This document shows, piece by piece, positions 35,154 to 55,359 of a stretch of 64,000 nucleotides of DNA. A program made the position numbers and the translations under genes. Source of the DNA: Methanobacteriota archaeon (lineage in GTDB: Archaea > Thermoplasmatota > E2 > DHVEG-1); NCBI GenBank assembly GCA_963769885.1, contig CAVYNH010000007.1, positions 128,001 to 192,000 on the forward strand, in the 5' to 3' direction. Numbering within the stretch: the first letter of the stretch is position 1; every line of letters begins with the position of its first letter. A model generated the notes under the pieces. The model was not told the origin of the DNA, searched no databases, and worked only from the letters and a program-made list of their open reading frames with translations.

Positions 35154-36797
35154 TTACTTATTCAAGATATGACGCAGGAAAGAAAATGTATCAGGAAAGC
35201 GTTCCAAGAGCCAGTGCAAGAATCCCGCGAGGGTGAAGTGGTACGGCATGGTGACGGGTAAGTCCGCCCAATCACTCAATGCACCCTCAGTGTCTCGTGC
35301 CTGGACTCGTACAGTATACGATCCTTTTTTTGCCCAGCTGTGAGAACGAGTGATAGTATCACCGGATGGATACGGTCCGATCCAGCTACTATTGGATCCA
35401 TCCCCCCAGTCAATGAAATACGAGACATTATCCCCATCAGGGTCCGAAGTCGAGACCGTATAGTTGTATGTGGTCTTCGGCTTACCGTGGCTTGGTCCTG
35501 TGATCAGTGGTTGCTCGGGCGGATGATTTTGAGGCGGCTGGCTCGAGGGTCGACCGATGCCGACGACCGCCTGCGGTACGAGGTTCGTCTGGGACGATAT
35601 CCCAATCGCGGCGCGCAATCCCGGGATATCCGCGATATCCATGATGACGCTGCAACTGAGGTTCAGGCTCCCGGCTTCGAGGAGTGCATTATAGGAAATC
35701 GCTCCTGCCTCGTAATACCACCATGTTTGGTAGGTGGATGAACCGACGTTCGTATCGAGACATTCCAGGAGTATCCAGGGGGCTGAGGCGAGTGAGATGT
35801 TTGCAGCGCCGACCGCATTTTGGATTAAGGCGCGCTGGTCTCCGGACAGAATCTGGGTAAGGGAATGTGATTCTGGTAGGTACCTATAAACGGCTGTTTG
35901 GTTCGCCGCATAAATCTTGAATGGATATTTGTCTATGGCGCTAGGGAGCGTTCGATGGCGGAGTATCGTCGAAGTATGCTCTGTATTATATGAGAATCCG
36001 TAAGACGCCCATATTAGCTGTGATTCCTCATACTGGGAGAGCGACTGGTTGTCCCAAGCGTTAGTAATATGGCGGTTATCGATGGCTTGTGCAAGAGTCA
36101 TGGTATTGTTCTGAACAGCCGGTAGGTTCGTTAGGGGAAGTGGATTATAGGTAAACGAGGGAGGGGTTGTTGGGTGCCCGACGTGCATAATAATCTCGGG
36201 TTTTTGATCGGAAGGAAGTCCGAGTTGATTCAAGTCGTTGACGTTCATGCCGGTGGTGATGGCAGTGAGGCCGAGGGCGTTGGCGTCGAAGTAGACGCTT
36301 TGTGCGGTCATGCCGATTTCGGCCATGGCGTCTTTTTCATCGGGGAGGAGGGTCATGTTCCAGACCATGCCGAGCTTGATGGGGGCACCTGTAGCTTGAC
36401 CAAGGTTGAGGTGGTTGCCGGTTTTGAAGAGAATGAGGCTGTGGTTCTTGGGGTTGTAGGTGTAGGTGTTGTCGCTGCGGATGACGTAGATGACGGTGGC
36501 GTAGATGCCGGTGGGGCTGTAGATGGTACGGTTGCCGTTGGTGGTGATGCCGTAGCCGGCCCAGAGGATGGTGGAGAGTTCTTGGTCGGTGAGGTTTTGG
36601 CTGGTGTAGGAGCGTATGGACATGCGTCGGCAGATTGATTTTTCCATGATCGTGCCTGGGTCGATGGGTGGTGGGAGTTGGATATCTGTTTGTGTTTGTG
36701 GGGGTGTGGTGGCTTGGGTGTAGTTCAGGCAGGGTAAGGGGGTTATTAGTATGAGTAGGATGATTCCTACAAGGATGATGTGATGATTTTTCGTCAT
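35154..36797 (-). CDS. Secreted protein with two SagB/nitroreductase-like domains and a C-terminal PKD domain
   Basis: Signal peptide; RRMSIRSY..LS.ILWA.YG and a second QLIWASYG..RTLPSA..YP..EAG; YFIDWGDG PKD. Confidence 0.8.
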   Translation of the reverse strand: MTKNHHIILVGIILLILITPLPCLNYTQATTPPQTQTDIQLPPPIDPGTIMEKSICRRMSIRSYTSQNLTDQELSTILWAGYGITTNGNRTIYSPTGIYATVIYVIRSDNTYTYNPKNHSLILFKTGNHLNLGQATGAPIKLGMVWNMTLLPDEKDAMAEIGMTAQSVYFDANALGLTAITTGMNVNDLNQLGLPSDQKPEIIMHVGHPTTPPSFTYNPLPLTNLPAVQNNTMTLAQAIDNRHITNAWDNQSLSQYEESQLIWASYGFSYNTEHTSTILRHRTLPSAIDKYPFKIYAANQTAVYRYLPESHSLTQILSGDQRALIQNAVGAANISLASAPWILLECLDTNVGSSTYQTWWYYEAGAISYNALLEAGSLNLSCSVIMDIADIPGLRAAIGISSQTNLVPQAVVGIGRPSSQPPQNHPPEQPLITGPSHGKPKTTYNYTVSTSDPDGDNVSYFIDWGDGSNSSWIGPYPSGDTITRSHSWAKKGSYTVRVQARDTEGALSDWADLPVTMPYHFTLAGFLHWLLERFPDTFSFLRHILNK

Positions 36798-36971: not shown

Positions 36972-37025
36972 CAGTTTACCGGTGAAAATATATGTTTTCT
37001 CCTATTGAAAAAAATTGTAAAAAGA

Positions 37026-38225
37026 TTAGTGTAAAGGCTCTGGAGGCACACCTTCAGGCAAAGATGGTTGTATATCAGGTGTTTCCCAATTATGAAGATT
37101 CTCAATGTTAACAAGAAGATACATAAAAACCGGAAGGGTAGTTTCCATCCAATGAACAAGATGGTCATGTTTACCCCCACCATCGCCTGGGTCATAATCA
37201 AATGGTAAAAAATCAACCGCAAATGAAGGTATACGAAATTCTTTGAAACACCAATCCTCTGCTGAACCACTCATATAAGGATTTAATTTATCTGCATTTC
37301 CTCCCTTTTTATATTCCGTATTCTTATCAATCCAGTCTTTTACGTAATTATAGACATATTGTTCCTGTTTTGGTATCTCAAAAGGTGGTCTAAAAGCATC
37401 CCAAGGGCTAAAAAGCATAAGACCAGCGGTATGACAGTTTAAATAAAAAGAAAAATCATTATTTTCAAGTTCTCTCATAAAATCCCTCATTGCCTGAGTT
37501 TCAGGCTCTGAAAAAGGATGGCGACCGCAATTTTCAAGATGTAATGGAAAACTTGGGAACAATTTATTCAAGAGTGTGAAATCTCGGGACCAATTGGAAG
37601 GGATTTCAGGGATTTTTATACGACCAAATAACTTACCCAAAGGTATAGCACCTCCTTTTATCCTACCGAAATCAATATCAAAATTACGATTCAAATTTAT
37701 ACCATTGTCATTATATCGGGAATCAGCCTGTCTCCCATCGGGATTTACAAAAGGAACGATGTACACTTCAGATGAATTTAGAATATGAGTAATTGTCTCA
37801 TTGGCATCAAAGTTAATGAGAAGATACTCGGCAAGATACAAACACGCCTCGCCTCCTTCCCATTCAGCACCATGGATACAACCATCAATAAGACAAGACG
37901 ATTTTATCGTATTGTTCTTCTCATTGGTTAACCTGATACACCAAATATCTTTTCCAAGAACACTTTTGCCAATAGAAAATACATTTACTAAATCAGGATA
38001 TTTACCATTAAAATCATTCAGCATTTCCATGGTGCTATAGTAATCGTGGTATTCTCCATCTGTCCAATTTGGAAGAAAAGAAGGTTGGTCCAATTGTGCT
38101 TCTGGTAGTACGGTTTCTGTTGATACTGCTGTTTTTTGTTCCTGATTAATACATCCAGTAAAGAGTACAGTGAGCAAAATACCACAGAGAAACAATGCGA
38201 GTAAATGAGATAATTTCTTATCCAT
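37026..38225 (-). CDS. M14 zinc carboxypeptidase, putative lipoprotein
   Basis: Lipobox-like LFTGC; IGKS..G, HGAE, NPDG, NLNRNF, FSEPET, NCH. Confidence 0.88.
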   Translation of the reverse strand: MDKKLSHLLALFLCGILLTVLFTGCINQEQKTAVSTETVLPEAQLDQPSFLPNWTDGEYHDYYSTMEMLNDFNGKYPDLVNVFSIGKSVLGKDIWCIRLTNEKNNTIKSSCLIDGCIHGAEWEGGEACLYLAEYLLINFDANETITHILNSSEVYIVPFVNPDGRQADSRYNDNGINLNRNFDIDFGRIKGGAIPLGKLFGRIKIPEIPSNWSRDFTLLNKLFPSFPLHLENCGRHPFSEPETQAMRDFMRELENNDFSFYLNCHTAGLMLFSPWDAFRPPFEIPKQEQYVYNYVKDWIDKNTEYKKGGNADKLNPYMSGSAEDWCFKEFRIPSFAVDFLPFDYDPGDGGGKHDHLVHWMETTLPVFMYLLVNIENLHNWETPDIQPSLPEGVPPEPLH

Positions 38226-38341
38226 TTTCTATTCCTTAGAATATTTGAATAAGTTTTATAGTATATAATTATATTTTCCTGTGAATTTTACCGGTAAATA
38301 GGTGTATGTATTAATTTTATATCGCATGTAATATAAAAAAG

Positions 38342-38426
38342 TGCAGGGGAAGGGATTTGAACCCTCGGACCTCTACAGGACAAGACTCTGAATCTTGCGC
38401 CGTTGACCAAGCTTGGCTACCCCTGC
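38342..38426 (-). tRNA. tRNA-Leu(CAG)
   Basis: GCAGGGG acceptor, CAAGA-TTCAGAG-TCTTG anticodon arm, long variable arm, GGGTTCAAATCCC. Confidence 0.95.
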
Positions 38427-38565: not shown

Positions 38566-38639
38566 GGCCCGAGTAGTGTAGCCTGGTAACATATGGGACT
38601 GTGGATCCTCTGTGCCGGGTTCAAATCCCGGCTCGGGCC
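38566..38639 (+). tRNA. tRNA-His(GTG) with encoded G-1
   Basis: G-GCCCGAG/CTCGGGC-C acceptor, CTGTGGA anticodon loop, CCGGG-TTCAAAT-CCCGG; upstream TATA-like TAAGTATAA. Confidence 0.93.
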
Positions 38640-38640
38640 T
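38622..38640 (+). repeat. attL core (tRNA-His 3' end)
   Basis: CAAATCCCGGCTCGGGCCT, repeated at 51463-51481. Confidence 0.92.
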
Positions 38641-38692
38641 ATTCAGCAATCCTTAAAAGCCCTTACACGCTTCCTCCTTAGCGTGATGCGAC

Positions 38693-39940
38693 GTGACAGA
38701 CCCGATCGATGAGCGGTTGAAGCGGGCCCGGGTCTATATTGAGAAGCTGAAGACGACCCGCGAAAACAAACGGCTCTTTTTTGATTTCTACAAACAACTC
38801 GCCGGTGGAGTAAAACCGCTCTCCCAGGTCCGCCAAGACAAATACCTCTACGCTTTTTCAACAATTGTTGAACTCCTGCCGATAGATTTTCGCCAGGTCA
38901 CGAAGAAAGACATCGAACGCTTCTGCATTGGTGTCAACACACTAACCACATCCAAAGGGAAGCGATACAGTGAATGGAGTCGGCGTGACCTAAAGATCAT
39001 CATCAAGCGGCTCGTAAAATTCATCAGGGAATCAGAAGGACAAGAGTTCGAGAAGCAACAGTATCCAAAAGAAGTCTCCTGCATCGAGATTAACATCGAC
39101 AGAAAAACCACGAACTACAAAAAGAAGCACCTTGACTGGGACGATATCGTGAAGATGGCCAGAGTCGCAAACAACCTTCGGGATAAGGCATTCGTGCAGT
39201 TCCTCTATGAGAGCGGGGCGAGAATCGGCGAAGTGTTAAGCGTTCAGATCAAGGATGTGACATTTAAACAGTCCTACGCGGAAGTCCAACTACCAGTGAG
39301 TAAAACAAAACCCCGTCCAGTGTACGTCAGCCGGAGCGCACCGGCTCTCAGCCAATGGCTTCACGAGCATCCGAAAGCAGGCGACCCTGAGGCTTTCCTG
39401 TTCTGCGGCCTGTGGTCCAAGAAGAAAGGCGACGGGATCAACTACCAGACGTTCCGATTCATGCTCCAGGGCCTCGCCACACGCGCTGGCGTCAAGAAAC
39501 CGGTGAACCCGCACCACTTTCGACATAGCAGGGCGACGGAGCTGGCGCACTCGCCGGATCTGACGAACGCCCAGCTCTGCCAGCTTATGGGTTGGGTTCA
39601 GGGAAGCCGGGAACTTAAAACATATATTAACGACGTTGACACCGAAAAAGCGATGCGGAAGATGTTTGGCATTGAGGATAAAGAAGAGGAGAAGAAACAA
39701 CAGAAGATCATCGTCTGTCCGCGCTGCGGCACTGAGAACAGTCCTGGGAGCGAGTTCTGTTTTAACTGCCGTCTGGGGCTGGATGATAACGCCGTCCTCA
39801 AGTATGAGGCTGCAAGTAAGGAGTTGCTAAAACAAACCGAGGACATCAAGACTCAGAACGATCTCGCTGAGGTCGTCGCGTCCCTGCAGGACGAGGTAAG
39901 GGAGTTGAAAGAACAAATCAGAAAAAAGAATCAGAAATAA
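38693..39940 (+). CDS. int: Tyrosine integrase with C-terminal Zn ribbon and coiled coil (resembles SNJ2-type)
   Basis: ESGARIGE, PVSKT, PHHFRHS, LMGW, TY; CPRC...CFNC. Confidence 0.92.
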   Translation: MTDPIDERLKRARVYIEKLKTTRENKRLFFDFYKQLAGGVKPLSQVRQDKYLYAFSTIVELLPIDFRQVTKKDIERFCIGVNTLTTSKGKRYSEWSRRDLKIIIKRLVKFIRESEGQEFEKQQYPKEVSCIEINIDRKTTNYKKKHLDWDDIVKMARVANNLRDKAFVQFLYESGARIGEVLSVQIKDVTFKQSYAEVQLPVSKTKPRPVYVSRSAPALSQWLHEHPKAGDPEAFLFCGLWSKKKGDGINYQTFRFMLQGLATRAGVKKPVNPHHFRHSRATELAHSPDLTNAQLCQLMGWVQGSRELKTYINDVDTEKAMRKMFGIEDKEEEKKQQKIIVCPRCGTENSPGSEFCFNCRLGLDDNAVLKYEAASKELLKQTEDIKTQNDLAEVVASLQDEVRELKEQIRKKNQK

Positions 39941-40013
39941 CTACATATTACGTTATACATAATACGTTAAATATTTTTATAAACCAATAATTTATTCTAT
40001 TTTTGTGATTATC

Positions 40014-40187
40014 ATGGAAAACGAAATCGAAAAAGAAGGCCACTTAGAACCGCTTGATATCCTGAACTACCTTGACTATCTCTGCAATAAGAAGACAGTA
40101 GCGGAGTTACAGGCGGCGATACACAAGATCAAGGATGTCATCGAAGCAGACCGGGTCGGCCAAATGTGTGAAATCTTTCGACCATAA
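40014..40187 (+). CDS. Small hypothetical protein (element)
   Basis: TATA-like TTTATAAA upstream; hairpin + T-run terminator downstream. Confidence 0.55.
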   Translation: MENEIEKEGHLEPLDILNYLDYLCNKKTVAELQAAIHKIKDVIEADRVGQMCEIFRP

Positions 40188-40399
40188 ACCGGGGGAGACC
40201 AGCCCCCCTCTTTTTTTATTTCTATCTCGATTATTTATAATAAATCCTGGCGCGTTAATGTGTTCTCGAAGCGGGTGTGGCTATTCCCCGGCCCTTGAGA
40301 GGCCGCACGAGGGGCCGCCGTCACGCCTGGGGCAAACCCCGGCCCCCTTTGTACAAATGGGTTGTACATAGTACCTATAGAGGTCAATGATCCACTCTT

Positions 40400-41071
40400 C
40401 TATTTTTTTAAATAGCATTGAACAAACGCCATTTGAGGAGCCTCAAGGGATTCTTTCTTCTTAATAATTTTTTCAATTTCAAGCAACGACAGGAAAATCA
40501 ACTCTCGAAGATATTTAATTTTTTTATTGTCTTCCCCTCTATCCGTTCGCATCAGAGAGTTTCTTTCCTCTTTTGTCACCCCGTAAAAAACTTGATTAAA
40601 TTTAATCCCCTCTATTTCATCGTAAAAAGATTTAATCTCACTAAATTCGTATCTTTCTAAAATCTTTTTAACTATATATCGGGAGAGTTCTACCATTCCC
40701 TTTGAAGTGACATAATATTTTTTTCCTTTTTTGTGGACAAACCTTAGTCCTTTCTTGCTTTCACCCAATCGATGATTGAGATAATGATTTAGATGAGATC
40801 GATTGCCACTCTTAATTACGCCACAATACCGATTTTCACTTTTTTGATGAGTCTTAAAAAAATCTTCTATTTTTCTATAGTTATATGCCGTTTGAGGCTC
40901 GTTCTTAATTCGTTCCGGAGTCGCATATTCATCCATGAGAAGATAACGGAGATGCTTTGGTTCCAAACCATCATTAGGATTAACAGTGTAGCAAAGAGAC
41001 CAAATAATGCCTCTAACAATTTTATTATCAAAAACATCCCTGCTCGGTGCCTTTCTTTTCTTTTGTTTCAT
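40400..41071 (-). CDS. AT-rich wHTH-like protein, candidate element repressor
   Basis: HLNHYLNHRL...FV.K.GKKYYVTSKG wing-like pattern; divergent from the RHH gene. Confidence 0.5.
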   Translation of the reverse strand: MKQKKRKAPSRDVFDNKIVRGIIWSLCYTVNPNDGLEPKHLRYLLMDEYATPERIKNEPQTAYNYRKIEDFFKTHQKSENRYCGVIKSGNRSHLNHYLNHRLGESKKGLRFVHKKGKKYYVTSKGMVELSRYIVKKILERYEFSEIKSFYDEIEGIKFNQVFYGVTKEERNSLMRTDRGEDNKKIKYLRELIFLSLLEIEKIIKKKESLEAPQMAFVQCYLKK

Positions 41072-41195
41072 TGAACCACTTCCTGTTTAAGGAGTAATAA
41101 TCAATTGTTTTCTCCTTTGTTGTAAAAGGTAATTCTATACTTATGACACAACTAATATATGCTGACCACTATTAACACTTGTGGCAGGTGTGTTT

Positions 41196-41417
41196 ATGCC
41201 AAAGAAAGAGATGACGAAAGGGCGCCTGTCCGTCTCTGTCGATAAAGAATTTATCCGAATCATCGACCAGACACGAGGAATCGCATCAAGAAGCGCGTTC
41301 TTGAACCAATTTTTCAGGCGGCATTTAACATTTCAAACTGCTGCCGAATTGATGAAACCGCTCCCCGTTGATGGGAAATTATCACCCCCAAAACGAACAA
41401 CGAAGGCGACTCAGTGA
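41196..41417 (+). CDS. Ribbon-helix-helix (CopG-like) regulator
   Basis: RLSVSVD.E....ID..RG..SRSAF; AGGTG RBS. Confidence 0.75.
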   Translation: MPKKEMTKGRLSVSVDKEFIRIIDQTRGIASRSAFLNQFFRRHLTFQTAAELMKPLPVDGKLSPPKRTTKATQ

Positions 41418-41569
41418 ACTCCATTAACTTTTTCAAACGTGAAAACTGCCTGGAATGCGCCACGCCCTGCAAACAATCCGGCATTGAACTGATCAGCTGT
41501 CTTTTGACAAGAATAAGCGAGCTCAACGCTGAGATAAAAGACTTAAAAAAAGAGCTTGCGACGAGTTGA
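41414..41569 (+). CDS. 51-aa Cys-containing/coiled-coil protein (not in ORF track)
   Basis: GTG overlaps the upstream TGA; CLECATPC...C followed by heptads ISELNAEIKDLKKEL. Confidence 0.55.
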   Translation: MNSINFFKRENCLECATPCKQSGIELISCLLTRISELNAEIKDLKKELATS

Positions 41570-41597
41570 GATTGTTAATCCTGGAAAGTGATGTGAC

Positions 41598-42065
41598 GTG
41601 ACCCGGGTTTGTGTTGACTGCGGCAAGGACATCTCCGACCTGCCGAACAGAAGTATCCGATGCGCCCCTTGCCAACACCAATACACGCGGCAACACCGGA
41701 AACACTATCAGGCGCAACGGTACGACAAGCGACACCCCAGAGGCAAAGAACGCAGAAACAGACGCCGACAAACCATAGGCCATCAGAAACGCCTGAACCG
41801 GCTCGGCAGCGGCGGGTTTAATTCGTTACGCTACGCGATCCATTTTCTGGTCGATGACGACGGCAGGATCTATGACGAAGAAAGCCTCATCCGAAAATAC
41901 GCGCAGCTCAATGAAGACGAGGAGACCGTCGGGAGAATCATCACGGAGGACGGCATGGTCGTCGGGGAATGGAAAGGCGGCCTTCCGCTCACCATCGAGA
42001 CCGTCTTCAGTCTGACGTCAAACTATCGACATTGGCACTATTGGCGCGACCTTCTACGGGAGTAA
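41598..42065 (+). CDS. Zn-finger, Arg-rich protein
   Basis: CVDC-x12-CAPC followed by a basic helix. Confidence 0.65.
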   Translation: MTRVCVDCGKDISDLPNRSIRCAPCQHQYTRQHRKHYQAQRYDKRHPRGKERRNRRRQTIGHQKRLNRLGSGGFNSLRYAIHFLVDDDGRIYDEESLIRKYAQLNEDEETVGRIITEDGMVVGEWKGGLPLTIETVFSLTSNYRHWHYWRDLLRE

Positions 42066-42110
42066 AACCCCAAAGTGTTGAAAACATGATATATTATTGG
42101 AGGGCTAGGG

Positions 42111-42437
42111 ATGGCTCAAACAGTAGAACAGCGGCTCAACGCCGCCTTCAAGGCAGCGATGGAATCTATCACCGTTAAGGATGCCCAACACCCGGTGTGG
42201 ATGACTTTACGAGTTGATGGCGGTGCCGCCAAGATCCTCACGACGGCTGCTGCGCGGCTCAATCTCACGCCGGACGAACTTTTGACTCGTATCATCCAGG
42301 AGTACGCTTCTTTTCGATATTTCGACTGCTACTTTAGGATAGACGAAAAAACACTCGGAGAGATCGCCAGCCAGAAACACATGATTATTACTTATCGGAA
42401 AGAGGTTCGTCTCATCGATGAAGACAAAGGTGCCTAA
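42111..42437 (+). CDS. Small putative DNA-binding (RHH-like) protein
   Basis: GGAGG RBS; MTLRVD....L...AA..NLTPDELL.RII. Confidence 0.6.
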   Translation: MAQTVEQRLNAAFKAAMESITVKDAQHPVWMTLRVDGGAAKILTTAAARLNLTPDELLTRIIQEYASFRYFDCYFRIDEKTLGEIASQKHMIITYRKEVRLIDEDKGA

Positions 42438-42440
42438 AAA

Positions 42441-44300
42441 ATGACCGGAGAGAATCCCCCAAGCGCCTCAAAAAGCCATGTGTATCTCCAGGGCTCGCCG
42501 GCGCCCCCCGAGACCGCCCTGCAACTCCGCATCGACGTACGCGACGCCTTGAACACCCCCATCATCACCCTCGCCGCCAGCGACTTCGTCTTCAACCTCG
42601 GCGGAAAAACCGGGACGATCACATGGTCGAATTTCTATAACCAAGGCGACGGGAACTACACCTGGGATGCCACTGATACTGACGCCGAATCCGTCAACAT
42701 TACCACAACAATCGCGGACATCACCCTCGACGACGTCGTCACCGGCGTCTGGACCAACGAGGACAACACCTGGGACAAATACCAAGAATATGGGAAAATC
42801 GGCACAGAGATCGGCGTCGTCACCATCACGGACGCAGGAACCACCACCAGCCTCGACTGGTCCGGCTCCATGAAACTCATGAAGGCGATGGAAGGACTCT
42901 GGGCCACATTCACCTATCTCGATGAATCAAACCGCTATCTGATTCAATACGCCTACAGCCTCGACGAAGGCCTCACCTGGACCACCGGCAACGTCTGCTA
43001 CGATGTCGCCTACGACCAACGCTACCCCAGCATCGGCGTCGACCGCGCCCGCCTCGTGCATTTCGCCTGGACAGGGAAAAACAGCGGCAGCACATCCTAC
43101 ACACAAGCCCGCTACCGCAGCCTCAACATTTCAACGATGACCCTTGGAACCCTCTACAACGTCAGCAGCGAGACCAGCAACGTCATCTACGCCATCGCCG
43201 TCTGCGACCAGGACAACGGCGCCCACATCATCTGGATCGCCGCCAACATCCTGAAACATCAATACACCCTCAACCAGGGTGCTTCTTGGCTTGGAGTCAG
43301 CAGCATCACCGCGACGAACCCCATCGTCACCCCCACGCTCTACATCAGTCCGGACAACATCCTCCATCTCGCCTACGTCGACCCGACCGCCAAAGCCCTC
43401 TACTACGCCCGTAGCCTCGACCGCGGGGCGACCTGGAGCAGCCCCGTCTGCCTTTGCGCCACCACCTACATCCCCTACAACCCCTGCATCGGCATGGGCA
43501 ACGACGGCATCGCCTACCTCGTTTGGCAGCAGAGGATCAGCGCAGGAAACGCCTACCAGCAAATCCACCTGCGGATGAGTCTGGACAATGGCGTGACCTG
43601 GCAGACCGAGACGCAATGCAGCAGCCCGATCACCACGGACGCGAACTACGACCAGGAATACCCGACCATCGCCTGCGACCCGGCAATCAACGGCATGCAC
43701 CTCTTCTGGGACAGCAACAGCGCGGCCTACGGTGTTAAAAACATCAGACATGTCACCTACGACCATGGTCTCATCGGCTCCATGGAATGGGTCACGACCG
43801 GGACGGTGAACGACTGGACCCGACCGATCCCACTACGTCAACTCACGCCGTTCGAGGCACCATGGAACGGCTACGTCTTCCTCTGGCAATCCTGGACTAC
43901 CATAAAATTCTACTACAATGTGGACGACTGCTGGCTGCCGCCCGACGGCGACTACCTCCTTTACCCCACCAGCGACCGGACGCAGGCCGTCCCCGTCCCC
44001 TACCCCACCTCAGCGACCATCACCAGCACCGAAGAGATCAAACGCTGCTACTACACGGACAACACCAGCACCTCACGCGACGAAGGCAAAGAAGGCGACA
44101 CGATAACGTTGGGCGGCATCTTCTACGACGACGACCTCGTCGGCCTCCTCGAGGACCTCGAAGGCCAAGAGGTCGCAATCCTCGGCATGTCGGACAACAA
44201 TTTGGACGGCATCTATCTCATCTCAGATTTCCGCGTGCAGCGCGGACCCGGCAGCGAAGGCCAATGGCCCTATACATTGACTCTGGAGGCAGTCGAATGA
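42441..44300 (+). CDS. Putative tail-tip protein: Ig-like N-terminus, BNR/Asp-box beta-propeller, tail-hub-like C-terminus
   Basis: Asp boxes SLDEGLTW, TLNQGASW, SLDRGATW, SLDNGVTW; C-terminal TITLGG...GIYLISDF...YTLTLE; adjacent to the tape measure gene. Confidence 0.6.
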   Translation: MTGENPPSASKSHVYLQGSPAPPETALQLRIDVRDALNTPIITLAASDFVFNLGGKTGTITWSNFYNQGDGNYTWDATDTDAESVNITTTIADITLDDVVTGVWTNEDNTWDKYQEYGKIGTEIGVVTITDAGTTTSLDWSGSMKLMKAMEGLWATFTYLDESNRYLIQYAYSLDEGLTWTTGNVCYDVAYDQRYPSIGVDRARLVHFAWTGKNSGSTSYTQARYRSLNISTMTLGTLYNVSSETSNVIYAIAVCDQDNGAHIIWIAANILKHQYTLNQGASWLGVSSITATNPIVTPTLYISPDNILHLAYVDPTAKALYYARSLDRGATWSSPVCLCATTYIPYNPCIGMGNDGIAYLVWQQRISAGNAYQQIHLRMSLDNGVTWQTETQCSSPITTDANYDQEYPTIACDPAINGMHLFWDSNSAAYGVKNIRHVTYDHGLIGSMEWVTTGTVNDWTRPIPLRQLTPFEAPWNGYVFLWQSWTTIKFYYNVDDCWLPPDGDYLLYPTSDRTQAVPVPYPTSATITSTEEIKRCYYTDNTSTSRDEGKEGDTITLGGIFYDDDLVGLLEDLEGQEVAILGMSDNNLDGIYLISDFRVQRGPGSEGQWPYTLTLEAVE

Positions 44301-44330
44301 ACAAGAAGGCAGATTTGCAGGGAGGTTTCA

Positions 44331-46535
44331 ATGCCAGAAACAAGCGTTGATGTTGATGTAAAAAGCAAAGGCGACATGGTCATTGACCAGCTCACCAGGA
44401 AACTGGGTATTTTCAACAAGGCTGGCATCGGGATGGGCGTCGCCTTCGCCGGCGTGAATATCGCCGTCGGACTCGTACAACAAGGCATCTCCGGACTGAT
44501 TAACTACATCACCGAAGGCGTCGAAAAGAACCGACAGTTCGAGCTCTCCCTGACGCGCATCGGACTTGAAGCGGGAGACACCAGCGCCGTCGGCCTCGCC
44601 AACCTCCGCTCCGAGGTCGGCGCACTCAGCATCGCATTCGCTACAAGCACCAGCGAGATCGCCGCCGGCATGCAAAGTTTCATACGCGAAGGCGCGAACG
44701 CCAGTCAGGCCATCAACCAGATGGTCGTCGCCGAACGCCTCGCAGTCGTCACCGGCGATGATTTCACCGCGACACAACAGGCTATCACCACCAGTCTTGA
44801 AGTCTTCGACCTCGATGTCGAACAGACAAATAACGTTGCGGAGGATTTGAACCGCATCTGGCACACGACCGGCCTGACCATGGGTGACGTCGCCCGAGTC
44901 TTCGGAAGCAACGCCGGCAAAATCAACGAAGCAGGATTGTCATTAGACGACATGGTCGGCATCATGACGGAACTCGACCAGGAAGGCTGGAGCAACCGGA
45001 CCATGATCAGCCAGCTTGGCGACATCCTCGGCGACTACAAGACCGCTATCGACAAAGCGACCGAAGGCAACAAAAACTTCCGGGATAACCCCCCGATCCC
45101 CACTACCACCGAGGCGTACGAAAAGATCAGCGCGACCACGGAATACACAGATAAGATGATCGCCAGCCTCAGGGAGTACAAACAGATGGACCTCGGCGGC
45201 AAACTCGACATCGGCGCCACCTTCAATAAAGGATTATTTGATAATGCGAAGCAATGGATTGAAATACTGAAAACCGACGGGATCACCACACTCGCGGATT
45301 TCAATCAACAAGTGCAGGCGGCCCATAACCCGTTGACCATCGCCGCTGGACTCCTCGGTCTCTGTTCAGATAAAGAACGCGACATGATAGCAGTGGCTAG
45401 TCAGGCAGGCGGCGACGTTCTCTGGCTTGTCCGCGAGATGCTCGCTTACAATGCTGCCATGGACAAGATGGCTACAGTGACGGACCAGACGAAAAAAACC
45501 CTCAAGGATTGGGTCTCTGGCCTCAACTCCGCGAACGATAAACTCGCTGATTACAACAAGACCGCCGGTGACATCAGCATGGAAGAGCGGCGGATCACGG
45601 CCGTCCACGATCTGACCAGCCAGCTTCACTATATGGACCTCGGACTCAAGGACGCAAGCTACGCCGACCGGATACTGGATGCGCAGACCGCCTCGCTCGT
45701 CGACAGCCTGCGAATGCAGCGGGATGCCATCGATGAACTCACTCAGGCGAACGAACAATATAGTCTCCAGAGCAACGAGAACAGCCTGGAGATGATGAAG
45801 ATACAATACGAGGCGGACGAACACGGTGGCAGGATGACCCGTGAGCAGGAGGCCCGGCTGAAAGAACTCCAGCACGCCAACAACCTCCTGCGGATCAACA
45901 CCATGGAGAACCAGGACCAGATAGATAAAACGCAGATGGACATGGGGCCGGAACAGGCGCGTCTCAACGCAATTAAGACCCGGATGGGCGAAGAAGTCGC
46001 CACGTACCAAGATACCTACAACAAGGAGATTCTGGCGCTGGAGGACAAACGACGCGCTGAAGATCAATTGATCGACGGCGAGATATTGAAACGGCAGGGG
46101 GCCTTGGATGCTATCGCCAAGATTCATAACGAGCAATGGTTGATAGAGCATACAAGCGGCCCGATCACCGGCCCGCAATTCGCTCAATATACTGCTCCTG
46201 TTCCGCCTGGATGGGGTCTCTACCAAGGGCAACCGATCTCCCCGATCCTCGTTCCACTCTATAGGGATCTTCCCGGCTACCGGCAGTATCACGTCGGCGG
46301 TGACGTCCTCGAAACCGGCCTCGCCATGGTCCGCCAGGGAGAACGGATCACGCCGCCCGGCGGGACGCCACCCGGCCCAGCCCTACAGACCCGCCCGGTA
46401 TTCCCACGGATCGAAATCTACCTGCATGTCGAGAACGCCGACAACCTCGACAGATTCGCCCGGAAACTCGGCGAAGCCATCGGGAAGAAACTCATCACCG
46501 GAGACATCCAGAGCGTCTATCATTTCAAAGGGTGA
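44331..46535 (+). CDS. Phage tail tape measure protein (TP901-like core)
   Basis: Ala/Gly-rich helical core (FELSL.RI, EIAAGM..F.R.G, AGLSLDDM.G), long coiled coil, C-terminal YHVGG.V.ETGLAMV..GERITP. Confidence 0.85.
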   Translation: MPETSVDVDVKSKGDMVIDQLTRKLGIFNKAGIGMGVAFAGVNIAVGLVQQGISGLINYITEGVEKNRQFELSLTRIGLEAGDTSAVGLANLRSEVGALSIAFATSTSEIAAGMQSFIREGANASQAINQMVVAERLAVVTGDDFTATQQAITTSLEVFDLDVEQTNNVAEDLNRIWHTTGLTMGDVARVFGSNAGKINEAGLSLDDMVGIMTELDQEGWSNRTMISQLGDILGDYKTAIDKATEGNKNFRDNPPIPTTTEAYEKISATTEYTDKMIASLREYKQMDLGGKLDIGATFNKGLFDNAKQWIEILKTDGITTLADFNQQVQAAHNPLTIAAGLLGLCSDKERDMIAVASQAGGDVLWLVREMLAYNAAMDKMATVTDQTKKTLKDWVSGLNSANDKLADYNKTAGDISMEERRITAVHDLTSQLHYMDLGLKDASYADRILDAQTASLVDSLRMQRDAIDELTQANEQYSLQSNENSLEMMKIQYEADEHGGRMTREQEARLKELQHANNLLRINTMENQDQIDKTQMDMGPEQARLNAIKTRMGEEVATYQDTYNKEILALEDKRRAEDQLIDGEILKRQGALDAIAKIHNEQWLIEHTSGPITGPQFAQYTAPVPPGWGLYQGQPISPILVPLYRDLPGYRQYHVGGDVLETGLAMVRQGERITPPGGTPPGPALQTRPVFPRIEIYLHVENADNLDRFARKLGEAIGKKLITGDIQSVYHFKG

Positions 46536-46565
46536 CCATGGGGGTGATGTGACACGGACAAAGAG

Positions 46566-46772
46566 ATGATCGAGAGACTCATCGGCGGGCAACTACCTTC
46601 CAATGTCTGCAACCTCGTTTTGAGAGGCAACACCCAATACGCCTTCGCGCTCACCGGGGTCGTTCTGGCTATCGGTGATTCTTCGCTGCTCTTCAAGACG
46701 AAACAGAAAGAGGCCGTAATTGATTTTGCGTATATTTTGAAGTTGGAGCCCAACGATCGGAAGGAGTTATGA
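46566..46772 (+). CDS. Small beta-rich protein, possibly Sm/Hfq-like fold
   Basis: LTGVVLAIGDSSLLF and VIDFAYILKLEP resemble Sm1/Sm2 motifs. Confidence 0.45.
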   Translation: MIERLIGGQLPSNVCNLVLRGNTQYAFALTGVVLAIGDSSLLFKTKQKEAVIDFAYILKLEPNDRKEL

Positions 46773-47026
46773 TAATGCCTCACATTGAACAGGGCAGAGC
46801 CGTGGCGGGTACCCCCTCAACACCCGCCGACTCACCCCAATCACAAAACCGGACTGCGGGCGCACCACCATCAGCGCCCGCAGTTCCACCTCCTTCTCAA
46901 ACCAAGCAAACATATTTCATCTGCTTTAGAGGCGTGACTGGGGACGAAGCCAGAACACTCCTCCGCAACATCCGCCAGAATGCCAAGATCTTCCACATCA
47001 CGGTACGCAGGAGCGCGGACCAATGA
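46769..47026 (+). CDS. Hypothetical protein (element)
   Basis: ATGA overlaps at both ends; GGAG RBS. Confidence 0.6.
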   Translation: MIMPHIEQGRAVAGTPSTPADSPQSQNRTAGAPPSAPAVPPPSQTKQTYFICFRGVTGDEARTLLRNIRQNAKIFHITVRRSADQ

Positions 47027-48810
47027 CCGATATCCAGTTCACCAGGGATGTCCCCCCGTTCAAAGCCGGCGAGATCCTCCACGACGCCACAGACAGGGAA
47101 ATCACAGTCTGGCGGACCGTCAACGGCGTCGAAGTCGTCGACAAACAAAAGCCAAAGCCAGAATCACCATCTAAAGAAAAAGAACCCACGCCGCCACCAG
47201 TGCAGGATATTGAACGACAGCCAAATACCGACCAACAACGACTCCGCTGCAGTAGCTGCGGGGCCGCCGCACCCGCCAGCACGCCCGAAGGCGCAGGGCA
47301 CTGCCCGGTGTGTGGCCAGGACACCATCTTCATCCCCCAGCCCGATAATGAGCCTCCAGAGCCAGATCCACTCGCAGGGATCATGGAACGCGCCCTGGAC
47401 CAAGAACAAGACCGGCGACAACGCGAAAACCGCCTCCTGCAATACCTCGTCTTCGAGAAAGACAAGGACGGTAAACCCACTGGCGCCGTTAACTGCATCC
47501 GACTCGCCAGACTCCTCCTCGACGGCGACGGACGAAACTACATCTCAACGGAAGACAACCAGGAAATCTTCAGCTACAACGGCAGTCATTACGTCCCGCA
47601 AGGCGACGCCCTTATCAAACAACGCGTCCAATACTACCTCGGGGACGAAGTCCGCGGACTCGAACACATCAAAAACGAAGTTGTCGGTTACGTCCGAAAC
47701 AACCAGTACATCGACCGCGAGCAGTTCAACCCCCCATTGCACCTCATCAATGTCAACAACGGAATCTACAACCTGCAGACAGGCGAACTACTACCGCATT
47801 CACCCGACCATTATTTCCTGCAGAAAATCCTGGTTGACTACAAACCAGGCGCGAAAATAGACAAGATAGCGGCGTTCCTTGAACAGACATTCAATCAAGA
47901 AGACATCCCGATCCTGCAGGAATTCCTCGGAGACAGCCTCTACCGTTCACACCGCTACAAAAAAGCCCTCATCCTCGTCGGACCCACCGACACCGGGAAA
48001 TCACAGTTCCTCTCCCTCATCGGCAAATTCATCGGGGAAAAAAACGTCGCACACGTCCCCCTCGACCGCCTCTGCCACGATAAATTCACACCCGTCGAAC
48101 TTTACGGCAAACTCATCAACATCCGCGCGGAACTCCACGTCAAAACCCTCCGCAGCATCGACATGTTCCTCATGCTCACCGGCGGCGACGTCATCGGCGC
48201 CGAACGGAAATACCAAAACGGCTTCAACTTCCGCAACTACTCAAAACAAGTCTACAGCTGCAACGAGACCCCAGACTCAGAGAACAAAAACGACGCCTAC
48301 TACAACCGATGGATCCCCGTCGAATGCAGCAACACCATCCCCAAAGAAAACCAAATCCCCAACTATTTTGAGACCATCAGCACAGACGAAGAACTCAGTG
48401 GTTTATTGAACTGGGCCCTCAAAGGACTCTACCGACTCCTCAAACAAGGACACTACTCCCATCACCGATCCATCGACGAAGTCCGAGAATTCATGACCAA
48501 AGGCAAAAACCCCATCCGCGACTTCGCCGACCAATACATCATCAAAGACCCCGACGCAGAGATCACCAACGGCGAACTCTACAACAGTTATAGGGACTTC
48601 TGCAAACTCATGGGCCACCCCATCAAAGACAGCAGCGTATTCTCCAAACTCGTCCACCCCCTCCTCCCACAAGGAACCCAAAAAGGCGAAACCAGCAAAG
48701 ATGGCCATAAACGCGTCTGGCGCGGCATCACCTGCACCTACGTCACCGCCGACCTCACCACCCTCGACCACGACTCAACAGATAAGACCCTTCAGGAAAC
48801 ATTTCCTTAA
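47023..48810 (+). CDS. P4/D5-family replication protein (Zn ribbon + D5_N + SF3 helicase)
   Basis: CSSC..CPVC; INVNNGIYNL.TGEL.PHSP; GPTDTGKS; LYGKLIN..E; LTGGD.I.AE.K; SCN; LLNWAL.G. Confidence 0.9.
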   Translation: MTDIQFTRDVPPFKAGEILHDATDREITVWRTVNGVEVVDKQKPKPESPSKEKEPTPPPVQDIERQPNTDQQRLRCSSCGAAAPASTPEGAGHCPVCGQDTIFIPQPDNEPPEPDPLAGIMERALDQEQDRRQRENRLLQYLVFEKDKDGKPTGAVNCIRLARLLLDGDGRNYISTEDNQEIFSYNGSHYVPQGDALIKQRVQYYLGDEVRGLEHIKNEVVGYVRNNQYIDREQFNPPLHLINVNNGIYNLQTGELLPHSPDHYFLQKILVDYKPGAKIDKIAAFLEQTFNQEDIPILQEFLGDSLYRSHRYKKALILVGPTDTGKSQFLSLIGKFIGEKNVAHVPLDRLCHDKFTPVELYGKLINIRAELHVKTLRSIDMFLMLTGGDVIGAERKYQNGFNFRNYSKQVYSCNETPDSENKNDAYYNRWIPVECSNTIPKENQIPNYFETISTDEELSGLLNWALKGLYRLLKQGHYSHHRSIDEVREFMTKGKNPIRDFADQYIIKDPDAEITNGELYNSYRDFCKLMGHPIKDSSVFSKLVHPLLPQGTQKGETSKDGHKRVWRGITCTYVTADLTTLDHDSTDKTLQETFP

Positions 48811-48844
48811 GGGGTCAGGCAACAAGAGAAGCTACAATGCTGAC

Positions 48845-48974
48845 CATCCACAGCATCCACACCAACCCGGGCTTACCTTTCCCCCCGCACGCGAGCGCAT
48901 TAAGTACACAGTTACACTAAACGCGCACACACGGGGAAAACAGTAATCACTTACAGCCGTGGATGCCGTGGACG
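48845..48974. promoter_or_regulatory. Nested inverted repeats, candidate replication origin of the element
   Basis: CATCCACAGCATCCAC (48845-60) vs GTGGATGCCGTGGACG (48959-74), 14/16 inverted match; inner TTTCCCC/GGGGAAA. Confidence 0.5.
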
Positions 48975-49194
48975 ACTAAAACACTATAAAACCCCACCCT
49001 CGTACCTCATCCCGCGTCTCGGCCTTGTCTTTGGAAATTCGATCTTAGATTTTACAGTCCAGAATCCGACTATAGTTCAAAGCCCTGGCTGGGACTATGT
49101 GCCAGACCTGCACTTCCCGCATGGTTTTTCTGCTTGGGTATTTAAAGGAAATTCAAGTTTTTCGAGGGATAAAAATCATGGAGTGTGTTCTTGA

Positions 49195-49740
49195 ATGGCA
49201 GACGAGACATCATCTGAGAGCAAGACCCAGGATCCAATCACGGCCTCGACAGAGGAACCTAGTGGAGAGCCGGTGAAGACGCCGCCGGCAGAGCGCCGCG
49301 TCATCATCAAGAGGTTGATCGAGGAGAAGGGCCTGCATGCCTTGAACAAGCTGGAGTTGGGGCGGCGGTTCGGTATCAGCGATCAGCAGATCACCCGGGA
49401 CGTCGAGGAGATCATGGGTGATCTCCCACCGGTCGATTGGGGGAAGCTTTTCAATAAGACCTTGTTGGACATCGACCGTAGTTTGGACATTGCGAACAAG
49501 GCGTTGGATAAGGCGACGGATGAGCGGATCCGGGGCCGTCTGGCGAATCAGATCTCTGAGATTCTTCTGAAGAAGACGACGATCTTGGAGAAGATGGAGA
49601 AGCTACTGCCCGCATCTGCGAAGGCAGAACCGGTCACGATCACGTACCGCTGCGTCGAGCCCATCAAGGAGAAGAAGGACCTGGAGCCGCCTATGGAGGA
49701 GCCCGTGGTGGATCTCAGTGGGGTGCCTGCCAGTGGTTGA
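49195..49740 (+). CDS. terS: Putative terminase small subunit (HTH + helical)
   Basis: HTH LELGRRFGISDQQITRDV; directly upstream of and overlapping terL. Confidence 0.65.
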   Translation: MADETSSESKTQDPITASTEEPSGEPVKTPPAERRVIIKRLIEEKGLHALNKLELGRRFGISDQQITRDVEEIMGDLPPVDWGKLFNKTLLDIDRSLDIANKALDKATDERIRGRLANQISEILLKKTTILEKMEKLLPASAKAEPVTITYRCVEPIKEKKDLEPPMEEPVVDLSGVPASG

Positions 49741-50977
49741 CGTCGCCTGTCCGCGGGTGTTCCTTGAGAAGCAGAAGGAGTTCCTGGAGAGCGATGCGCG
49801 TTTCATCTATTATTGCGGCGGCTTTGGCAGTGGGAAAACGCTGTGTCTGGCTCATAAGATCATCCGGGGGTCTCTGGAGAATCCGGGAGCGGTGAGTCTG
49901 ATGGCGTCAGCAACGTATCCGATGCTTCGAGACACGGTTCTGCGGACGTTCTTGGAGGAGACGACGTTGTTGCAGAAGGCGTTTGATGAGGCGGGGGCTG
50001 GTGTGAAACTCATCAGGGAGTTCAACCGCGGGGAGCTGCGGATCGTGTTCTTTAATGGCTCGGTCGTCTTGTTTCGGTCGTGTGATTCTCCGGAGAAGTT
50101 CAAGAGTTTGAATCTGGATTTTGTGGGGTTGGATGAGCCGACGGATGTCTCTGAGGATGTGTTTAGGATGTTGCAGGGTCGTCTTCGTGGTCGGCATGCG
50201 AGGAATCAGAGGCATTTCCTTGCGATGAGTGGGAATCCGGGGTCGCGGCTGCATTGGTTGTATGGGTTGTTTTTTGAGCATCCTCCGAGCGGTGACTATA
50301 AGGTGATTAGTACGACGTCGTATGATAATTGTTTCTTGCCGGCGAGTTATATTTCTTCGTTGGAGGCGGGGTATAGTGAGGAGTATAAGCGGCGGTATCT
50401 GCGGGGTCAGTGGGTGAGTTTTGAGGGTCTTGTGTATCCTGAGTTCTCTCGTGAGGTCCATGTCGGTGACTTCCGGGATCGGATGTTCAGTTCGTATGGT
50501 GGGGGGCTGGATGTGGGGTTCACGAATCCGTCGGCCTTCGTTTTGGTGGGGCGTGATGGTGACGATAATTTGTTTGTGCTTCAGGAGTTGTATCAGAGTA
50601 GGTTGACGCCGGTGGAGTTGGCGGCGGCGGTCCGTGAGATGGTCGCGCCGGTGATGGGGTCGTTTAGCGAGGTGTTGTGTGACCCGTCTGCTCCGGGTGT
50701 GATTGAGTCGGTGGGTCGGTTTGTGCGGTGTTCAGGGGCGGATAATGACGTGTTCAGTGGGATCGGGCGGGTGAGGAGTCGGTTTCATCTGCGGCGGTTG
50801 TTCATCGACCGGGGGTGTGTGAACCTGGTCCGGGAGCTGGAGGGCTATGTTTATCAGAAGGAGAAGCAGGGGGCGGAGTATAGTGAGGTGCCGGTGAAGA
50901 AGAATGATCATTTGTGTGACGCGCTCCGGTATTGTTGCATGGAGCCGGGTGGGACGGCCGCGTTCCTCATCGGGTAA
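49718..50977 (+). CDS. terL: Terminase large subunit (PBSX/SPP1-like)
   Basis: GGFGSGKT Walker A, FVGLDE Walker B, SGNP, DN.FL, GLDVGFTNPSA, DPSA, NDHLCDALRY. Confidence 0.93.
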   Translation: MGCLPVVDVACPRVFLEKQKEFLESDARFIYYCGGFGSGKTLCLAHKIIRGSLENPGAVSLMASATYPMLRDTVLRTFLEETTLLQKAFDEAGAGVKLIREFNRGELRIVFFNGSVVLFRSCDSPEKFKSLNLDFVGLDEPTDVSEDVFRMLQGRLRGRHARNQRHFLAMSGNPGSRLHWLYGLFFEHPPSGDYKVISTTSYDNCFLPASYISSLEAGYSEEYKRRYLRGQWVSFEGLVYPEFSREVHVGDFRDRMFSSYGGGLDVGFTNPSAFVLVGRDGDDNLFVLQELYQSRLTPVELAAAVREMVAPVMGSFSEVLCDPSAPGVIESVGRFVRCSGADNDVFSGIGRVRSRFHLRRLFIDRGCVNLVRELEGYVYQKEKQGAEYSEVPVKKNDHLCDALRYCCMEPGGTAAFLIG

Positions 50978-50990
50978 TGAAGGTGACATC

Positions 50991-51338
50991 ATGGATAAAG
51001 AGAACATCGAATCATTGAAGGAACAGATTGACGAGCAAGGCAAACTCATCAACGACCTCCAAATAGTTATCAGACAGCTCGTCGCATTCAACAAAAACGT
51101 CGTCAATCATGCGAAGGCGATCCATGACCTTACAGCCTTCACCAAGACCTTCGTGGGCCTCGAGAATGCACAGAGAAAGACCATCGAACTCCTGCAATTC
51201 AGGATCGACGCGCTCGAGAGACAGGCCGCGGAACTGATTAAAGCCGTCACGTTTGAGAAAAAGGTCGATGAGTTGTCCAATGCCGCCGTCAGTCCGCCGA
51301 AGGACCAGGGCGACATCCACGACCGCAGCTACAGCTAG
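50991..51338 (+). CDS. Coiled-coil protein (element)
   Basis: AGGTGA RBS; heptad-rich 115 aa. Confidence 0.7.
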   Translation: MDKENIESLKEQIDEQGKLINDLQIVIRQLVAFNKNVVNHAKAIHDLTAFTKTFVGLENAQRKTIELLQFRIDALERQAAELIKAVTFEKKVDELSNAAVSPPKDQGDIHDRSYS

Positions 51339-51462
51339 ACCACTGAACTACGCCAACGACTAGCATAATTATATATATAATGTTCTGCTTACATAATCGT
51401 AATTAGAGTCTATTTTGTTTTTTTAACTTCAATTAATTGAGCGGGATGTGTAGAATAAACAC

Positions 51463-51481
51463 CAAATCCCGGCTCGGGCCT
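51463..51481 (+). repeat. attR core
   Basis: Exact copy of 38622-38640. Confidence 0.92.
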
Positions 51482-55147: not shown

Positions 55148-55359
55148 AGATAGTCCCAGACGTCCACATCCTCCCCCGATCGCTACCTAAAGGACTTACG
55201 GGCCCCTTCGATAATCACCCGCGCCACGTCGCTTGGATTCGCGCCGCTAAGCCCCATCATTCTCGTCTCCGTCCTTAGGCTATATAACGATGATTCAACA
55301 ATGATTTAAACAAGAAACACAATCTATTTGAGACGTCTTCTTTTTCTCTCGTCTTGCGT

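Follow-up and report, generated by a model that had tools for sequence, protein, structure and literature searches.

The 64,000-nucleotide stretch analysed here (positions 128,001 to 192,000 of contig CAVYNH010000007.1, from a Methanobacteriota archaeon; hereafter the window) carries a 12.8-kb element inserted in a tRNA-His gene. It encodes an integrase, a primase-helicase and a terminase, and searches with Pfam, PHROGs and major capsid and portal proteins of related viruses found no major capsid, portal or tail tube gene in it. The element is intact and belongs to an old family of archaeal integrative elements of about 9.5–14.5 kb, and we consider it probable, at roughly 60%, that it functions as a satellite of archaeal tailed viruses, one that encodes a terminase and no capsid. 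The borders of the element, the identities of its genes, the recurrence of the family, the monophyly of its large terminase subunit (TerL), purifying selection, and a pattern of strand skew and iterons were established in this analysis. We infer that the element depends on a helper and is packaged, and any role of its tail proteins is likewise inferred.

Relatives of the window TerL were collected by a word-based search of 5.8 billion proteins, which showed a tight group at 53–63% identity and a further group at or below 47%; gene neighbourhoods were examined, and 31 metagenomic loci were scanned with reference proteins. At least 14 metagenomic contigs were found to carry a TerL 52–64% identical to that of the window. 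Every TerL at or above 52% identity (14 contigs) has a homologue of the window's 181-aa protein, a putative small terminase subunit (TerS), directly upstream, and none is followed by a portal gene. A primase-helicase of the D5 or PriCT type lies further upstream wherever sequence is available. At 47% identity and below, each TerL precedes a Phage_portal_3 portal and, further on, a Phage_capsid_4 capsid gene wherever the downstream sequence is available, and these TerLs lie largely on contigs of 40–47 kb. Because the capsid-less layout recurs on at least 14 contigs, it is not a one-off deletion. The core of the family consists of integrase, primase-helicase, TerS-like protein and TerL.

Both ends are visible in four elements of about 9.5–14.5 kb, which occupy different attachment (att) sites: the window element, 12.8 kb long and integrated in tRNA-His; L099, of about 14.5 kb, whose site is tRNA-Asp and whose repeat is 15 nt; L102/L009, of about 9.5 kb, which interrupts an SRAP gene; and L015, also of about 9.5 kb, which lies next to a C25 peptidase gene and has a 22-nt repeat. 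The tRNA-His site is used again by L103. Homologues of the window integrase stand at the head of L099, L102, L103 and L015, and L098/L008 is collinear with the window gene for gene, including the tape measure, without the propeller gene described below.

The ATPase and nuclease motifs of TerL are invariant across 17 members of the clade (Walker A G-x2-G-x-G-K, Walker B D134-E135, D260, D317 and D392/D396). In a tree with moderately distant TerL outgroups, the 12 element TerLs form one clade (SH-aLRT support 99) that is sister to a clade of complete tailed viruses. For close pairs with unsaturated synonymous divergence (dS 0.44–0.88), the ratio of nonsynonymous to synonymous substitution rates (dN/dS) was 0.07–0.15 for TerL and 0.13–0.16 for the TerS-like gene, values that indicate purifying selection on both. 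The 181-aa TerS-like open reading frame (ORF) overlaps the start of TerL by 23 nt, and it matched no TerS hidden Markov model (HMM). Its alignment of 15 homologues has a mean column identity of 55%, and the AlphaFold2 model (mean predicted local distance difference test score, pLDDT, 74.6) shows a three-helix helix-turn-helix (HTH, residues 31–75) and then a long antiparallel helical hairpin (residues 82–137). As modelled, its domains follow the order seen in small terminases. This protein family is confined to the elements; the sister viruses do not have it upstream of their TerL.

The integration target is the tRNA-His (GTG) gene at 38566-38640 (+), located with ARAGORN. The last 19 nt of this gene are attL, and the 19-bp perfect direct repeat CAAATCCCGGCTCGGGCCT occurs at 38622-38640 and 51463-51481, a spacing of 12,841 bp. 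By our own estimate, about 5e-4 such repeats would be expected by chance in 16 kb. Between the repeats, all credible genes but one lie on the + strand, and they are intact and tightly packed. The flanking genes Pus10, Hef and Kae1 identify the host as archaeal, and the genome that holds the element is 2.09 Mb and 92% complete. Among Logan contigs, the element was present in only one sequencing run, a thin freshwater-sediment metagenome, and one 265-nt metagenomic contig (run X1) bridges attR in the integrated state; no RNA run holding the element is listed. The empty site could not be read in the same-genus genome G001, as only a 713-bp piece of the right flank is common to both, without synteny. 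The features of the element, in window coordinates, are as follows.

38566-38640, + strand: tRNA-His (GTG), by ARAGORN; its last 19 nt are attL
38622-38640, no strand: attL, 19-bp perfect direct repeat, by repeat match
38693-39940, + strand: tyrosine integrase, 415 aa, with a C-terminal Zn ribbon (PF00589, 2e-21; phrog_216/phrog_1)
40005-40187, + strand: 60-aa ORF, no family match
40400-41071, - strand: 223-aa AT-rich ORF, putative regulator by position only, no HMM match
41181-41417, + strand: 78-aa small DNA-binding-like protein, ribbon-helix-helix-like by eye only (homologues in L099, 2e-11, and L181, 3e-14; no Pfam match)
41414-41569, + strand: 51-aa ORF from the ORF listing, no family assigned
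41598-42065, + strand: 155-aa Zn-ribbon protein (weak Zn-ribbon matches)
42111-42437, + strand: 108-aa conserved small protein, upstream of the tail module (homologue in L098, 3e-08; no Pfam match)
42441-44300, + strand: 619-aa receptor-binding-like propeller protein (AlphaFold2 model, Foldseek, homologues of its C-terminal domain)
44331-46535, + strand: 734-aa tape-measure-like protein, PhageMin_Tail (PF10145, 1e-13; 11 PHROG tape-measure families)
46566-47026, + strand: pair of small conserved ORFs, of 68 and 85 aa, immediately before the helicase gene (homologues at the same position in L098, L099 and L100)
47023-48810, + strand: D5-type primase-helicase (replicase), 595 aa (PF19263, PF08706, PF03288; phrog_864, 1.7e-71)
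48811-49194, no strand: likely replication origin (iteron palindrome at the skew switch)
49195-49740, + strand: TerS-like protein, 181 aa, HTH and long helical hairpin (by position, conservation and architecture)
49718-50977, + strand: TerL, 419 aa, ATPase and nuclease motifs intact (Terminase_3, 9e-21; phrog_2, 7.5e-50)
50991-51338, + strand: 115-aa coiled-coil protein, last gene of the element (homologue near the right end of L098, 1e-15; weak coiled-coil family matches)
51463-51481, no strand: attR, second copy of the 19-bp repeat

A preliminary description of this DNA had reported the perfect att repeat at tRNA-His with its 12,841-bp circle, the intact integrase, the D5 helicase, the tape measure, a propeller protein, and tight packing without pseudogenes, all of which were recovered here. 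Its comparison to the size and the integrase-regulators-replication-packaging layout of phage-inducible chromosomal islands (PICIs) also held. Two of its gene calls stood in part. For a divergent pair of winged-HTH and ribbon-helix-helix regulators we found no HMM support, and what remains is a 78-aa ORF that is conserved in relatives; for the terS-terL pair, TerL is identified by HMM, while the 181-aa ORF has the position, conservation and architecture of TerS without a TerS HMM match.

The primase-helicase matches the D5_N, DUF5906 and Pox_D5 models and is 76% identical to its L098 orthologue. At the place equivalent to the 223-aa ORF (40400-41071), L008 and L009 also have an opposite-strand ORF (280 and 358 aa, respectively), non-homologous to that of the window. 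The N-terminus of the 155-aa ORF resembles a 199-aa ORF of L008 at the matching position; protein atlas look-ups of the 155-aa ORF and of a 219-aa ORF of E2 gave only unnamed clusters below useful scores. The small ORFs were all searched with Pfam and PHROGs, with no credible family found. Beyond the assigned genes and the propeller protein, the largest remaining ORF is the one of 223 aa.

A likely replication origin follows the helicase gene. In the window, tandem CATCCAC(A) iterons are opposed, at a distance of 101 nt, by inverted GTGGATG/GTGGACG copies, and tandem short repeats facing inverted copies 60–100 nt away, right after the helicase stop codon, were observed in the window, L098, L099 and L100. 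The motifs are specific to the element, being CATCCACAG in the window and L098, TGAACG in L099, and TGGAAC in L100; L102 and L103 have other palindromes at the equivalent place after the helicase gene. The third-codon-position skew changes sign from the helicase gene to TerS in the window, L008, L009 and L015 (GC content at third positions, GC3, 35% to 79%), though the genes are on the same strand. The primase-helicase block has a GC3 skew of -0.27 to -0.64 and an AT skew at third positions (AT3) of +0.42 to +0.54, while the TerS/TerL block has a GC3 skew of +0.26 to +0.56, and TerL an AT3 skew of -0.55 to -0.93. The L014 contig starts at the TerS-like gene, and its TerS/TerL skew matches that of the other elements. 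No such third-position skew was seen in a related full virus. The pattern is consistent with a bidirectional origin recognised by the element's own replicase. The skew switch together with the iteron palindrome points to a long history of self-replication; both this history and the origin argue against a passive relic.

The tail genes are accessory and lie outside the family core. The tape measure is about 51–52% identical to its L008/L098 orthologue over the aligned length. Orthologues are present in L098 and L100 and absent from L099, L102, L103 and L015, so that the gene is found in 3 of the 7 elements or contigs that cover its position. Its nearest homologue outside the elements (37% identity) lies inside the tail module of a virus, L134. 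The genes that precede the tape measure in L134 and in L098 are homologous to each other. Because of this homologue and the common upstream gene, we conclude that the tape-measure block moved between viruses and elements.

The 619-aa protein gave only sub-threshold BNR matches by HMM. Its homologues were collected with an exhaustive HMMER search, and a subset was aligned as input to AlphaFold2. The model has a pLDDT of about 90 over residues 125–495, which form a six-bladed propeller of sialidase fold, behind an N-terminus that is disordered or Ig-like. Its matches in the PDB were 5muk (E 3.7e-11, TM-score 0.68) and sialidases, and in BFVD it resembles gp427 of phage G and phage tail-spike and fibre proteins. 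A C-terminal beta domain, roughly the last 100–190 residues, recurs at the C-termini of four other proteins: a 484-aa protein of L182 (2e-28), a 256-aa (1e-12) and a 459-aa protein of L134, and a 683-aa protein of L183. The two L134 genes are just downstream of the tape measure in the virus-type tail module, and the L182 and L183 carriers are the last structural genes of two virus-like contigs. Since the propeller fold is joined to a C-terminal domain common to virus tail proteins, the 619-aa protein is a receptor-binding-like tail protein and has no place among capsid, portal and tube proteins. Its gene occurs in the window copy alone, with only weak homologues in the word-based search.

Other members carry other genes of this kind. 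The right end of L099 (12395-15437) holds two glycosyltransferases and a LamG/ConA-like/DUF2341 lectin-like protein that differs from the window propeller. In L009, TerL is followed by a 265-aa gene (11411-12208) that is 44% identical to a gene located between portal and capsid in the closest virus clade. Its virus homologues (L112:6319-7203, L017:7026-7817 and L016:14337-15092) lie two genes upstream of the capsid gene, and the invariant motifs of the family (a His, V-S-V, and G-A-C...G-C-G-I-G) recall a prohead protease or scaffold, which may indicate such a role; no HMM matched this head-module family, and a PDB profile search returned nothing. From the L099 lectin, the L009 265-aa gene, the tape measure and the propeller, it follows that different members carry different virion-related accessories around a fixed core.

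A candidate for the helper virus lineage was found in a genome of the host's own family. The 29.8-kb contig G034:C22 (L006/L007) is a complete-looking tailed virus with a TerL 41% identical to that of the window, a portal, a capsid, an exonuclease, a minor tail protein and a 607-aa tape measure. The links between the element and viruses are thus the tape measure, its upstream gene, the propeller C-terminal domain, and this sister-clade virus contig. Contigs with virus-type and element-type TerLs also come from a shared sample series, which is weak evidence of co-occurrence. The contigs of the family are from freshwater and lake sediments (the JGI Ga03152xx series and the sample of run X1). No CRISPR array was found in the host genome by a simple k-mer search, and so no spacer link to a helper is available.

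We propose that infection by a tailed helper virus would cause the element to excise from tRNA-His through the 19-bp att site and to replicate in both directions from the iteron palindrome that follows the helicase gene. The element's TerS would select element DNA for packaging, and its TerL would dock on the helper portal and pump this DNA, probably as concatemers of two to four units, into procapsids made by the helper, after which helper tails would complete the particle. The tape measure, in this copy and some relatives, and the propeller, in this copy alone, may become part of the helper tail and alter the infection route or the host range of the particles. The preliminary description had suggested a satellite of reverse design, which borrows the capsid, portal and tube and supplies the packaging motor and tail tip. 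The absence of head genes and the element's own terminase were borne out, and both recur in a family of small elements; the tail part does not extend to the family, as the tail genes lie outside the core, with the tape measure in 3 of the 7 elements or contigs that cover its position and the propeller gene in this copy only. A fuller version, in which such elements form a class that steals procapsids with its own terminase and a sub-lineage swaps in its own tape measure and receptor-binding protein, thereby setting the entry route or host range, is put forward as a tentative extension.

Several results weigh against a satellite interpretation. No other TerL was found in the 92%-complete host genome, and portal, capsid and tape-measure queries from related viruses found no portal or major capsid gene anywhere in it; the co-occurring full provirus that the preliminary description had proposed to look for was thus not found there. 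Reads across attP or an empty attB, also proposed there, were not recovered either, with no joint of either kind in the one thin metagenome holding the element. IMG/VR scans with the window TerL and the clade alignment returned only virus-type TerLs at or below 47% identity and no clade member, and the family is rare in reference genomes, at 1 of 197 in the host's class. A scan of GTDB species representatives gave nothing above 34% identity, and whole-genome searches of 107 host-family genomes with the TerS-like profile and of 197 class genomes with the TerL profile found no second copy, returning otherwise HTH-domain look-alikes without TerL (G086, G088 and G090) and the one virus contig (G034). 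A first TerL tree, with very distant, long-branched outgroups, was rooted inside the element group; we judged this to be a long-branch and composition artefact and replaced the tree with one using closer outgroups. The window TerL has the longest terminal branch, with 14 private, mostly conservative changes at otherwise invariant sites, and so this copy, intact as it is, has possibly undergone some relaxation or faster evolution. Finally, the TerS-like assignment of the modelled 181-aa protein rests on position, conservation and architecture: Foldseek found nothing significant, with the G20c and P74-26 small terminases among the full-length alignments (probability 0.77, E about 0.8), and VIA-align returned only generic helical hairpins.

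Of the other explanations, the one that survives best is an integrative plasmid-like element that is no satellite and has recruited a terminase for concatemer resolution, for loading vesicles or another carrier, or as a decoy that benefits the host by sabotaging virus packaging and is not packaged itself. The autonomous replication module and origin would suit such an element, no helper or packaged form was seen in the genome, IMG/VR or the one thin metagenome, and the two glycosyltransferases of L099 are cargo typical of plasmids and islands. Krupovic et al. (PMC6563490) described a terminase as never seen in non-viral elements and its role as enigmatic. However, the ATPase and nuclease motifs are both conserved, and because several members carry virion-related genes (the tape measure, the tail-protein domain, the L009 head-module gene), virions are the more natural destination. 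We know of no non-packaging role for a TerS-TerL pair, and overall we regard a plasmid-like element as unlikely.

The element could also be what is left of a once complete tailed provirus after decay and the loss of its head genes and most tail genes, as NitKor-E1 (below) has been read. The viral origin of TerL, the tape measure and the tail-domain genes would fit this, as would the long branch of the window TerL. One locus of the family looks the part: at L012/L107:8048-11533, the TerS-like gene, TerL and five small ORFs lie inverted between two DUF7286 pieces, and neither an integrase nor a replicase is in the vicinity. At L015 these host genes surround a complete element, and the L012/L107 block may be a rearranged or decayed copy. 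Decay has nevertheless been largely refuted, and we consider it very unlikely. Elements with the capsid-less layout sit at different integration sites and differ in TerL by up to about 47%, the TerL clade is monophyletic and under strong purifying selection, the genes are tightly packed with no pseudogenes between perfect att repeats, and the skew pattern implies long-term self-replication. The preliminary description had stated that the satellite idea would fail if close relatives were complete proviruses of 30–50 kb, if a hidden capsid or portal gene came to light, or if the tape measure and TerL showed relaxed selection. The close relatives proved to be small elements, with complete viruses appearing only at TerL identities of 47% or less, and dN/dS was 0.07–0.16 for TerL and the TerS-like gene; the tape-measure comparison was saturated (dS above 1), and its dN/dS was set aside. 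Nor was a hidden capsid, portal or tube found with HMMs or related-virus queries, in line with the preliminary description, and the sole large unassigned protein was modelled as a propeller.

A complete miniature virus with capsid proteins too divergent to be recognised, for which the several small ORFs without known function might speak, is the least probable of all, given that the smallest members hold, beyond integrase, replicase and terminase, only ORFs of at most 170 aa (L015) or of 265 and 128 aa (L009), that no unassigned ORF is conserved family-wide, that the window's one large unassigned protein is the propeller, and that, to our knowledge, this TerL type has always been found together with HK97-fold capsids and with portals longer than 300 aa.

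Among published objects, the one that comes nearest is NitKor-E1 from Ca. Nitrosopumilus koreensis AR1, which has an integrase and TerS-TerL with no other virus genes and was read as "enigmatic ... likely a relic" (Krupovic et al. 2019, PMC6563490). Matched by its published description rather than by sequence, it is likewise archaeal and integrated, with a tyrosine integrase, adjacent TerS-TerL, and no capsid or other Caudoviricetes genes. Unlike the window element, it is a single case that carries VapBC and a restriction endonuclease, with no primase-helicase, tape measure or receptor-binding-like gene reported, whereas the layout found here is a conserved, selected family trait. The statement in the preliminary description that no such satellite had been described is thus qualified by a 2019 report, in which the object was taken for a relic.

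By definition, a virus satellite is without capsid genes of its own, as this element is, and the element has its own integration and replication functions. The definition further includes packaging and transmission in the virions of a helper virus, as is proposed for this element. A Caudoviricetes provirus would be expected to have a portal and an HK97-fold major capsid gene beside TerL; neither gene occurs here or in any of the 14 related contigs, while the sister-clade viruses have both. Among bacterial satellites, the capsid-forming PICIs (cf-PICIs, such as EcCIEDL933; bioRxiv 10.1101/2022.09.08.507074) are also integrative and have their own TerS and TerL, in TerL clades apart from those of phages. 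These deep, separate clades were used to argue for an old lineage and against prophage decay (bioRxiv 10.1101/2022.09.08.507074), and by the same logic the separate TerL clade argues for an old lineage here. In contrast to this family, cf-PICIs are bacterial, encode capsid, protease, portal, connectors and HNH, and borrow only tails, without tail genes of their own. The present family has an archaeal host, no head genes, and tail genes in some members, so that the opposite part would be borrowed.

Classical PICIs, including the Staphylococcus aureus pathogenicity islands (SaPIs), and marine VEIMEs (PMC9618062) resemble the element in size (about 9–15 kb), in the order integrase, regulators, primase-helicase and packaging gene, and in site-specific insertion at tRNA genes; their TerS redirects packaging (PMC9618062). 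The window element shares with PICIs and SaPIs the gene order, a size of about 10–15 kb and site-specific att sites. These bacterial elements carry only TerS (or Rpp), at most with capsid-size factors, and need the TerL of the helper, however, whereas an intact TerL is a conserved hallmark here. The P2-like phage satellite P4, compared by description, is also integrative, has its own primase-helicase and uses helper head and tail proteins, but it has no terminase genes; it relies on the P2 terminase by way of a cos site common to both, and Sid serves it to remodel the capsid.

According to Zhou et al., the archaeal satellites previously described were only pSSVx and pSSVi, to which they added the haloarchaeal SRCEs of spindle-shaped viruses (bioRxiv 10.1101/2025.02.15.638363), and NMV2S is a putative Asgard satellite of a head-tail virus, with 3.8 kb, a helicase-primase, Cas4 and no terminase (bioRxiv 10.64898/2026.08.12.739948). 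Like the window element, these are archaeal, combine a plasmid-type replicase with an incomplete virion module, and are thought to be packaged by a helper. Unlike it, pSSVx, pSSVi and SRCEs parasitise spindle-shaped viruses, and none of them, nor NMV2S, has TerS-TerL or tail genes.

If our interpretation is true, it describes a new mode of hijacking, in which the satellite takes over the packaging step and leaves shell building to the helper. Few archaeal satellites are known (pSSVx/pSSVi, SRCEs and the putative NMV2S), none of them with a terminase, and in bacterial satellites a full terminase is known only alongside the full capsid set of cf-PICIs. NitKor-E1 would then be the first glimpse of a wider class, and orphan archaeal terminases would be explained. 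The optional tape-measure and receptor-binding genes raise the question of whether a satellite re-tools the tail of its helper. The TerS-like/TerL clade could serve as a marker for elements overlooked by virus-detection pipelines, given that IMG/VR contained none.

A second element was observed in the same genome, 17 kb downstream of the first (G000:C7:200144-208540; L132:12081 to L133:540). It is about 8.4 kb long, is bounded by a 12-nt repeat of the 3' end of tRNA-Pro, and encodes a 428-aa integrase, a TerS of virus type (phrog_4102, 4.6e-24), a Zn-ribbon protein, and a 755-aa tape-measure-like protein that resembles the satellite tape measures more than those of viruses, along with ORFs of no assigned function; there is no TerL, portal or capsid gene in it. 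From its gene content it looks like a PICI-style satellite with TerS only. Under the tentative extension above, it suggests that carrying a tape measure is a recurrent satellite strategy in this host group. A homologue (45–52% identity) of the PriCT-type primase of L009 at G000:C4:382639-383848 may mark a third small integrated element.

Two minor observations concern the host sequence around the element. Host genes at window positions 27929-31081, 35154-36797 and 55354-57931 show very strong local third-position strand skews (GC3 skew -0.72 to +0.34) that do not simply track gene orientation, which suggests skew domains in the chromosome. In addition, a contig from run X1 joins window position 38364 back to 37000 with 28 other letters between, a joint that fits a circular or alternative form of a small tRNA-Leu islet (window 37000-38364).

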